A DNA stretch of 64,000 nucleotides from Eledone cirrhosa (Eukaryota): NCBI GenBank assembly GCA_964016885.1, contig OZ024740.1, positions 72,850,001 to 72,914,000 on the forward strand, given 5' to 3'. The translations under genes and the position numbers were made by a program. Position 1 is the stretch's first letter; every line of letters starts with the position of its first letter. The notes under the pieces were generated by a model. That model was not told the origin of the DNA and did no database searches. It saw only the letters and a list, made by a program, of their open reading frames with translations. Positions 53,777 to 54,712 of the stretch are shown here, one piece after another.

Positions 53777-54712
53777 TGAATATAGACATAGAATATTCGA
53801 AAATATTCTGTATGTTTATAATAAACATTTTGAAGACCTAATCGCTATAGAATAGAATACGTCACGTATTACAATTAGATTCTCGATAAAAGCAAGGGAA
53901 GTAATCTACGCGTTTCATTCTTGTTAGAAATCATCAGGACTACATATCCAGTGCTTTTATCGAGAATGACACAGCTAGAGACTTATAGAATACTTAGCTG
54001 TGTACAGTAACTGGTTTGAAAGAGCGGTTGCCGGTCCGGCAGAAATTAGAAATTGGAATAAATGCTCTGAAATAGCGATATATATGTGAATATAAACATA
54101 GAATATTCGAAAATATTCTGTATGTTTATAATAAACATTTTGAAGACCTAATCGCTATAGAATAGAATACGTCACGTATTACAATTAGATTCTCGATAAA
54201 AGCAAGGGAAGTAATCTACGCGTTTCATTCTTGTTAGAAATCATCAGGACTACATGAGAATCTAATTGTAATACGTGACGTATTCTATTCTATAGCGATT
54301 AGGTCTTCAAAATGTTTATTATAAACATACAGAATATTTTCGAATATTCTATGTCTATATTCACATATATATCGCTATTTCAGAGCATTTATTCCAATTT
54401 CTAATTTCTGCCGGACCGGCAACCGCTCTTTCAAACCAGTTACTGTACACAGCTAAGTATTCTATAAGTCTCTAGCTGTGTCATTCTCGATAAAAGCACT
54501 GGATATGTAGTCCTGATGATTTCTAACAAGAATGAAACGCGTAGATTACTTCCCTTGCTTTTATCGAGAATCTAATTGTAATACGTGACGTATTCTATTC
54601 TATAGCGATTAGGTCTTCAAAATGTTTATTATAAACATACAGAATATTTTCGAATATTCTATGTCTATATTCACATATATATCGCTATTTCAGAGCATTT
54701 ATTCCAATTTCT
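53777..54712. mobile_element. Retrozyme-like or PLE pLTR 310-bp tandem repeat, two head-to-head arrays of ~1.5 units
   Basis: Period 310 (53778/54088; 54256/54566), inversion point 54255/54256, three HHR copies, flanked by (TA)n. Confidence 0.82.
54483..54571 (+). ncRNA. Type I hammerhead ribozyme with extended helix I (copies on minus strand at 53901-53943 and 54211-54253)
   Basis: gtagtc-CTGATGA-tttctaacaagaat-GAAAC-GC-GTA/gattac, continued by a 16-bp stem attctcgataaaagca/tgcttttatcgagaat. Confidence 0.82.

Follow-up and report, generated by a model that had tools for sequence, protein, structure and literature searches.

In a 64,000-nucleotide stretch of the Eledone cirrhosa genome (the window), I analyzed an insertion which is probably a 310-bp hammerhead (HHR) element laid into (TA)n as two opposite arms by a Penelope-like element (PLE) enzyme copying a circular monomer RNA. 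The repeat is a new family of a known class. Non-LTR retrozymes, their RNA circles, and the rolling-circle/PLE model have been published (Cervera and de la Pena 2020, PMC7229834; reviewed in PMC7761336), and a 2026 preprint by Li, Clavereau, and Pollet (10.64898/2026.07.22.740005) tied retrozymes to the pseudo-LTRs (pLTRs) of PLEs by co-occurrence and phylogeny. In the accessible parts of these sources, the model comes without such a genomic footprint and no description of two-armed tail/no-tail retrozyme insertions was found, while the supplements may hold cephalopod-type or inverted examples. The anatomy of the insertions supports, at the genomic level, mobilisation by PLEs and, with less certainty, a template that is circular. 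Both the movement of retrozymes and the inverted copy and one-sided tail of PLEs are treated as open questions in the parts of PMC7229834, PMC8557442, and the preprint that deal with them.

As shown in Table 1, the window locus is a short, typical insertion. Its period is 310 and its 458-nt inverted repeat is 97% complementary. The unit has a G+C content of 33.9%, and the element has no ORF of more than 30 aa (the longest internal ORF is 30 aa). The first-pass annotation of this DNA had described a non-coding 310-bp unit in two head-to-head arrays inside (TA)n, with near-identical copies and two minus-strand cleavage sites spaced by exactly 310 nt. This description was borne out, with one difference among the window copies. 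Unit positions are numbered from the base following the predicted cleavage site. An internal TA tract lies within site A (unit 130-139).

Table 1. Features of the 310-bp hammerhead element and its surroundings (window positions)
Feature	Position	Strand	Remarks
(TA)n target, left flank	53758..53776
Left arm	53777..54255	-	479 bp, 1.55 units; unit positions 272 -> 130; outer end class A, no tail
Second minus-strand hammerhead	53901..53943	-	predicted cleavage after 53907
Predicted 310-nt monomer	53907..54216	-	between both minus-strand sites; putative, from HHR positions
Hammerhead adjoining the junction	54211..54253	-	predicted cleavage after 54217; without 5' strand of the 16-bp extension
Head-to-head (5'-to-5') junction	54255..54256		two 5'-truncated arms; blunt; not mirror-symmetric (272 / 23)
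Right arm	54256..54712	+	457 bp, 1.47 units; unit positions 23 -> 169; outer end class B, tailed
G+C-rich hairpin block	54406..54430	+	directly 3' of site B; kept in sister families
16-bp stem prolonging helix I	54483..54571	+	54483-54498 with 54556-54571
Type I hammerhead	54507..54549	+	motif, fold, covariation in relatives; activity predicted
Helix I	54507-54512 with 54544-54549	+	6 bp
HHR core	54513-54519	+
Helix II	54520-54533	+	U-U at base
GAAA	54534-54537	+
Palindromic helix III	54537-54542	+	predicted cleavage after 54543
PLE-type 'tail'	54674..54712	+	spans site A (unit 130-139) to site B (165-172)
(TA)n target, right flank	54713..54733

Is the inverted structure peculiar to this locus? 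I mapped 56 loci (the window, 16 found by searching with the unit, 22 chosen as known pairs, 16 taken from unpaired ends, and one picked from the HHR list). Two arms were found in 46 of them, and in all 46 the outer ends were one of class A and one of class B. This includes 24 of the 24 two-armed loci picked without prior pairing, the remaining 22 having been fetched as known pairs. In the first 66 Mb of C1, the 23 divergent pairs among the ends listed (31 A, 32 B) were all A+B (p about 1e-7). Site B lies 26-42 nt from site A. The other 10 of the 56 loci were single-armed by BLAST; among them, one has a B arm of about 10 nt and one ends at a gap. The inversion is the normal insertion product of the family and no local oddity. 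The outer ends are fixed and the inner ends are random: the 92 inner ends are spread uniformly round the unit (Rayleigh p 0.5), with one of them within 5 nt of the cleavage site. Either of the two arms may be the longer (22 vs 24), and the arm lengths follow an exponential fit (62 arms, KS p 0.39) with a mean of 5.4 units and a maximum of 27. The insertions target (TA)n. L091 is the sole non-microsatellite target among the 56 loci, and there a 15-bp target duplication was found (more than 4 bp is expected of a retrozyme); a duplication is unreadable inside (TA)n. One of two identical insertion copies in L072 was dropped from the analysis. At L066:1499-1771, a 272-nt unrelated sequence is caught at the head-to-head junction, possibly by a template switch, and L053 and L037 have doubled junctions.

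It can hardly be true that the element is a plain satellite spread by DNA recombination, its inversion being an assembly artefact and its HHR a chance motif. Such a view starts from the assembly, which is microsatellite-rich and gapped and contains one insertion twice beside a gap (L072), and from the window junction, which is unbridged among the short-read contigs listed (X2/X5/X6, one sample), although such a hole proves nothing. It is contradicted by the fixed strand-oriented ends, the strict A+B rule, the target duplication, and the HHR covariation described below, and also by 12 other head-to-head joints in the short-read contigs of run X2 (depth 3-21; X2 is possibly the source of the assembly).

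The ends resemble those of PLEs. PLE insertions are known for an inverted 5'-truncated copy and a tail of 30-40 bp at one end (PMC8557442, PMC3846280). In all 46 two-armed loci, one copy is inverted and 5'-truncated and a single end is tailed, and the target is a microsatellite or AT-rich. The likeness to endonuclease-positive PLEs comprises the inverted truncated copy, the one-sided tail, the (TA)n or AT-rich target, the target duplication, and an HHR upstream of the end sites. Unlike these PLEs, the 310-bp element is ORF-less, lacking the RT and GIY-YIG endonuclease ORF of an autonomous PLE, has a unit of 310 bp instead of kilobases, and runs many full rounds on both arms. Moreover, none of the pLTRs in the PLE families sampled matches its unit in sequence. 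Non-autonomous Chlamys PLEs, e.g. MRC1, are likewise non-autonomous derivatives with multicopy head-to-tail insertions (PMC8557442). In contrast, Chlamys PLEs form a green-lineage clade said to be without canonical HHRs, and their non-autonomous members generally match an autonomous family at the 3' end (PMC8557442), while no such match was found for the 310-bp unit among the PLE families sampled. An anole PLE cut and extended both strands in vitro, with two internal RNA starts bounding the tail (PMC11167929). By analogy, sites A and B may be the start sites of reverse transcription. The hairpin block directly 3' of site B is a candidate docking site for the PLE protein.

The unit itself is that of a retrozyme. 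Metazoan non-LTR retrozymes are described as tandem non-coding units of 150-450 bp with a GC content under 50%, one type I HHR per unit, thousands of copies, and co-occurrence with PLEs (PMC7229834; 10.64898/2026.07.22.740005), and the 310-bp family is like them in all these points. The short repeats carry an HHR motif in consecutive units and do not form the ends of any element with an ORF, and an LTR-internal-LTR layout was found in none of the mapped loci. Published metazoan retrozymes, in contrast, form head-to-tail arrays, and their mobilisation by PLEs was argued from common HHRs, co-occurrence, and pLTR phylogeny in the texts cited above. Moreover, RNA expression has been demonstrated for them, while the 310-bp family is described here from genomic DNA. 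The first-pass annotation had offered a choice between a retrozyme and a PLE derivative. Both readings hold, since the element is a retrozyme with a PLE integration signature, and the exclusive choice falls away.

A further question is whether the unit is a detached pLTR of an autonomous PLE, the inverted arm being the result of a single cDNA that folds back or primes itself, a route proposed for PLE inverted repeats on account of palindromic junctions (PMC3846280). This is quite improbable as a whole. The junctions are asymmetric (4 of 46 within 10 nt of mirror symmetry, vs 3.1 expected), either arm can be the longer one, and repeated variants are not mirrored between arms. As for the pLTR, Xenopus retrozymes are homologous to PLE pLTRs (10.64898/2026.07.22.740005), the PLE sample covers only about 9 families, and L084 is separated from a PLE ORF by 200 N. 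However, continuity with an ORF was found in 0 of 56 loci and in 0 of 30 sister-family loci. The unit may have a pLTR ancestry.

I also looked for PLEs in the same genome. Neptune-like RT/GIY-YIG elements are abundant there (the clade name follows the CxxxxCxxC linker, compared with the part of PMC8557442 that describes it), and three of them (L103, L136, and L140) have tail/no-tail ends in (TA)n as in the 310-bp family. No autonomous partner with an A/tail/B block was found in 50 GIY-YIG loci (about 9 families) of 10,597 candidates, and the nearest PLE protein match is at least 1.3 kb off in the 56 loci, the exception being L084 across an assembly gap. Two partner candidates were rejected: the match in L093 comes from a nested sister element whose neighbouring PLE is unrelated, and the similar HHR in L137 belongs to a separate nested palindrome. 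A near full-length Neptune-like PLE lies at L122:2809-5622 (-); it is flanked by a pLTR on either side, and its RT/GIY-YIG frame is open over 938 aa. This PLE and another family have HHR-like motifs with a U3-A8 core.

Do the two arms come from one template? The arms carry a matching haplotype in 38 of 39 loci, with 19 haplotypes in total (permutation mean 4.7, maximum 12; L072 and loci with an arm under 334 nt are excluded). Among the within-locus variants (L077 excluded), 88 are fixed, 74 single, and 18 intermediate. A 2-bp deletion is fixed across 22 units in L065 and a substitution across 18 units in L068, on both arms in each case. Thus, a bottleneck of one unit, followed by multiplication, is needed, and rolling-circle reverse transcription of a monomer circle would supply both. 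The predicted cleavage site is crossed by 88 of the 92 arms. Since copying of a linear monomer would stop after 130-170 nt and miss both the HHR core and the docking block, the template must have been continuous across the cleavage site. Two observations weigh against the overall reading: the arms of L089 differ at one site, with an allele switch part-way along one arm, and 10 of the 56 loci are single-armed.

A continuous template could also be an uncut linear multimer, read off an existing array as one long RNA and copied by PLE twin priming. A circle would then be unneeded, and arrays would owe their uniformity to that of their donors and to subsequent exchange at the DNA level. This would explain equally well why the ends are A and B and why the arms run across the cleavage site. 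The anole PLE could do without HHR cleavage in vitro, its main substrate being unprocessed RNA (PMC11167929). The HHR of the 310-bp family is predicted to be weak as a monomer. Block duplications exist inside long arms: repeated variants occur at periods of 7 and 10 units within one arm (L065; array fetched as L034+L035), indicating DNA-level unequal exchange after insertion, by which arrays can grow and homogenise without rolling circles. I nevertheless consider the linear multimer unlikely, because rare variants in every unit of both arms (L065, L068) need a one-unit bottleneck, copies of a linear donor can only shorten while arms attain 27 units, the HHR has been kept with compensatory changes, and the L089 arms differ in allele order.

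The first-pass annotation had assigned each unit a type I HHR with a helix I extended by a 16-bp stem. Three motifs, just that number in about three units, were found (core starts at +54513, -54247, and -53937). Helix I with its 16-bp extension folds with a z of -5.8, equalled by 0 of 200 shuffles, but the HHR at -54247 is without the 5' strand of the extension. All three local hairpins that had been noted recur in the predicted fold of the circular monomer (-67.8 kcal/mol, z -4.8, 0 of 100 shuffles as good, 59% paired). The U-U at the base of helix II, which had been called non-canonical, is present in 3 of 3 window copies and has a precedent in the axolotl HHR_Amex2 (PMC7229834). An Rfam scan returned only microsatellite noise and a sub-threshold match to Hammerhead_HH9 (19.2 bits, E 0.99). 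The HHR call thus rests on the motif and its covariation.

The core is conserved across genomic copies. An exact 36-base HHR pattern has 4,495 matches genome-wide (a control pattern has 0), and none of the 9 sites of fixed variation in the HHR domain falls in the 12 core bases (p 0.036). The fixed variants are mostly changes of N7 or loop 2, G-U wobbles, or U-U -> A-U, with a single insertion in helix I. In an alignment of 17 chosen relatives (L183 left out), 94.9% of the cells are paired and double changes occur at 9 of 13 pairs. This score was reached by 0 of 500 shuffles, and slid controls gave 19-40%, with the caveat that related sequences can outscore shuffles even without structure. Of 51 distinct motifs, 50 have C3-G8 or U3-A8. 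Their helix III is a palindrome in 33 cases and close to one in most of the others. In the 310-bp family, it can close just one A-U pair in cis, similarly to the axolotl HHR_Amex1, which has a single-pair helix III with a palindromic loop (PMC7229834). The ACGCGU palindrome would form 6 bp in trans (predicted -9.5 kcal/mol). Thus, cleavage as a dimer is predicted, as for the axolotl motifs (PMC7229834). Cleavage is made less certain by helix II, which rarely forms in the predicted monomer ensemble (pair probability 0.13), and by Xenopus retrozymes, of which 8 of 9 dimers remained uncleaved in vitro (10.64898/2026.07.22.740005).

If a circular monomer is the template, the following course can be proposed. 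Multimeric transcripts would self-cleave as HHR dimers with the 6-bp helix III formed in trans, and the monomer would be ligated into a circle, which might resist recutting because it has a single HHR. A PLE protein acting in trans would bind directly 3' of site B and nick both strands of the (TA)n target with a stagger. Priming would occur at site A for one strand and, 26-42 nt away, at site B for the other, and each polymerase would run round the circle until it falls off (after 5.4 units on average), whereupon both cDNA ends would be joined head to head. The more specific idea that one PLE dimer on one RNA circle primes the two nicked strands at the two fixed sites and rolls both ways could be right or wrong with equal probability. 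If it is right, the strict one-tail rule would explain the tail and the inverted-repeat structure of PLEs in general, and the ribozyme-made circle would be the real transposition intermediate of animal retrozymes.

Can the window locus itself serve as a donor? A 310-nt monomer is obtainable only from its minus strand (54216 to 53907), and an RNA copied from the entire locus would, by prediction, have 93% of its bases paired. The locus is probably a poor donor, since read-through RNA would fold into a 458-bp hairpin, and a 310-nt circle from it, as had been predicted, is doubtful by this folding model. Thus, the better donor candidates are loci with long arms of unequal length, for example L062 (1.2 and 27.3 units).

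I estimated the size and age of the family in the 3.0-Gb genome. The exact pattern caught 100 of the 359 HHRs across 38 sampled loci, giving an estimate of about 16,000 units. On the plus strand, 661 ends of class A (after unit 130-139) and 806 of class B (after 165-172) run into (TA)n, while a third unit position tested in the same way gave 1 site genome-wide. Doubling these plus-strand counts gives a minimum of about 1,300-1,600 insertions, since only exact pattern matches are counted (minus-strand counts, inflated by repeated matches, were unused). The genome search for the unit that the annotation had suggested, which is no census (145 matches from 26 scored candidates), together with the mapped loci, revealed tandem arms of up to 27 units and no attachment to a PLE ORF, except for L084 across an assembly gap. 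Non-fixed differences within loci number 102 in 170,663 bases (0.06%; L077 and L044, with TA noise, excluded). Thus, the burst of the 310-bp family is recent, in agreement with the young, ORF-free retrozyme or non-autonomous PLE family that had been supposed. By the above estimate, the genome has very recently gained some 5 Mb of perfect inverted repeats. The family amounts to about 1,500 near-identical natural reactions in which start sites, arm lengths, junctions, and template identity are readable, and it names two putative start sites of reverse transcription and a candidate docking block.

Sister families of greater age, with units of about 316-322 bp, have the A/tail/B block and the ends in common with the 310-bp family. 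Their HHRs differ in sequence while the pairs are kept, including a C3-G8 -> U3-A8 swap. Members were found at L036:5423-5840, L082:1566-1873, L091:6630-7216, and L142-L201, some with a UUGAUAA core; one query gave 2,546 first-look candidates. A variant-motif search returned only sister families, and 3 of the 30 loci have a PLE protein match at a distance of 0.6-1.3 kb from the motif.

Other elements lie near the window locus. A 5'-truncated PLE pLTR fragment adjoins its left side (53480-53750, -), with a minimal HHR at about 53574-53603 and 84.5% identity to the 3' region of the L084 PLE; it was rejected as a relative, its sequence being unrelated to the 310-bp unit. At 52511-52935, there is an asymmetric palindrome flanked by (TA)n with HHR-like motifs at -52698 and +52835, which looks like a different small PLE-mobilised family. 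An inverted pair of HHR-like motifs (-57927, +58110) forms a long hairpin at 57926-58112, with a sub-threshold Rfam match to MIR841. Further HHR-like motifs occur at 1757 (+), 8342 (+), 25491 (-), 23458 (-), 31977 (+), and 34571 (-). The one at 1757 has a core and helix II nearly as in the 310-bp family, and its small palindrome recurs in L127 and L137. A tandem array of 31-bp units occupies 50908-51197. Finally, the runs X1, X3, and X4, which are labelled as other organisms and were left out of the evidence, each contain one flankless 340-nt unit contig (310 + 30) at a depth of 10-15, which may represent an RNA circle, a relative, or contamination.
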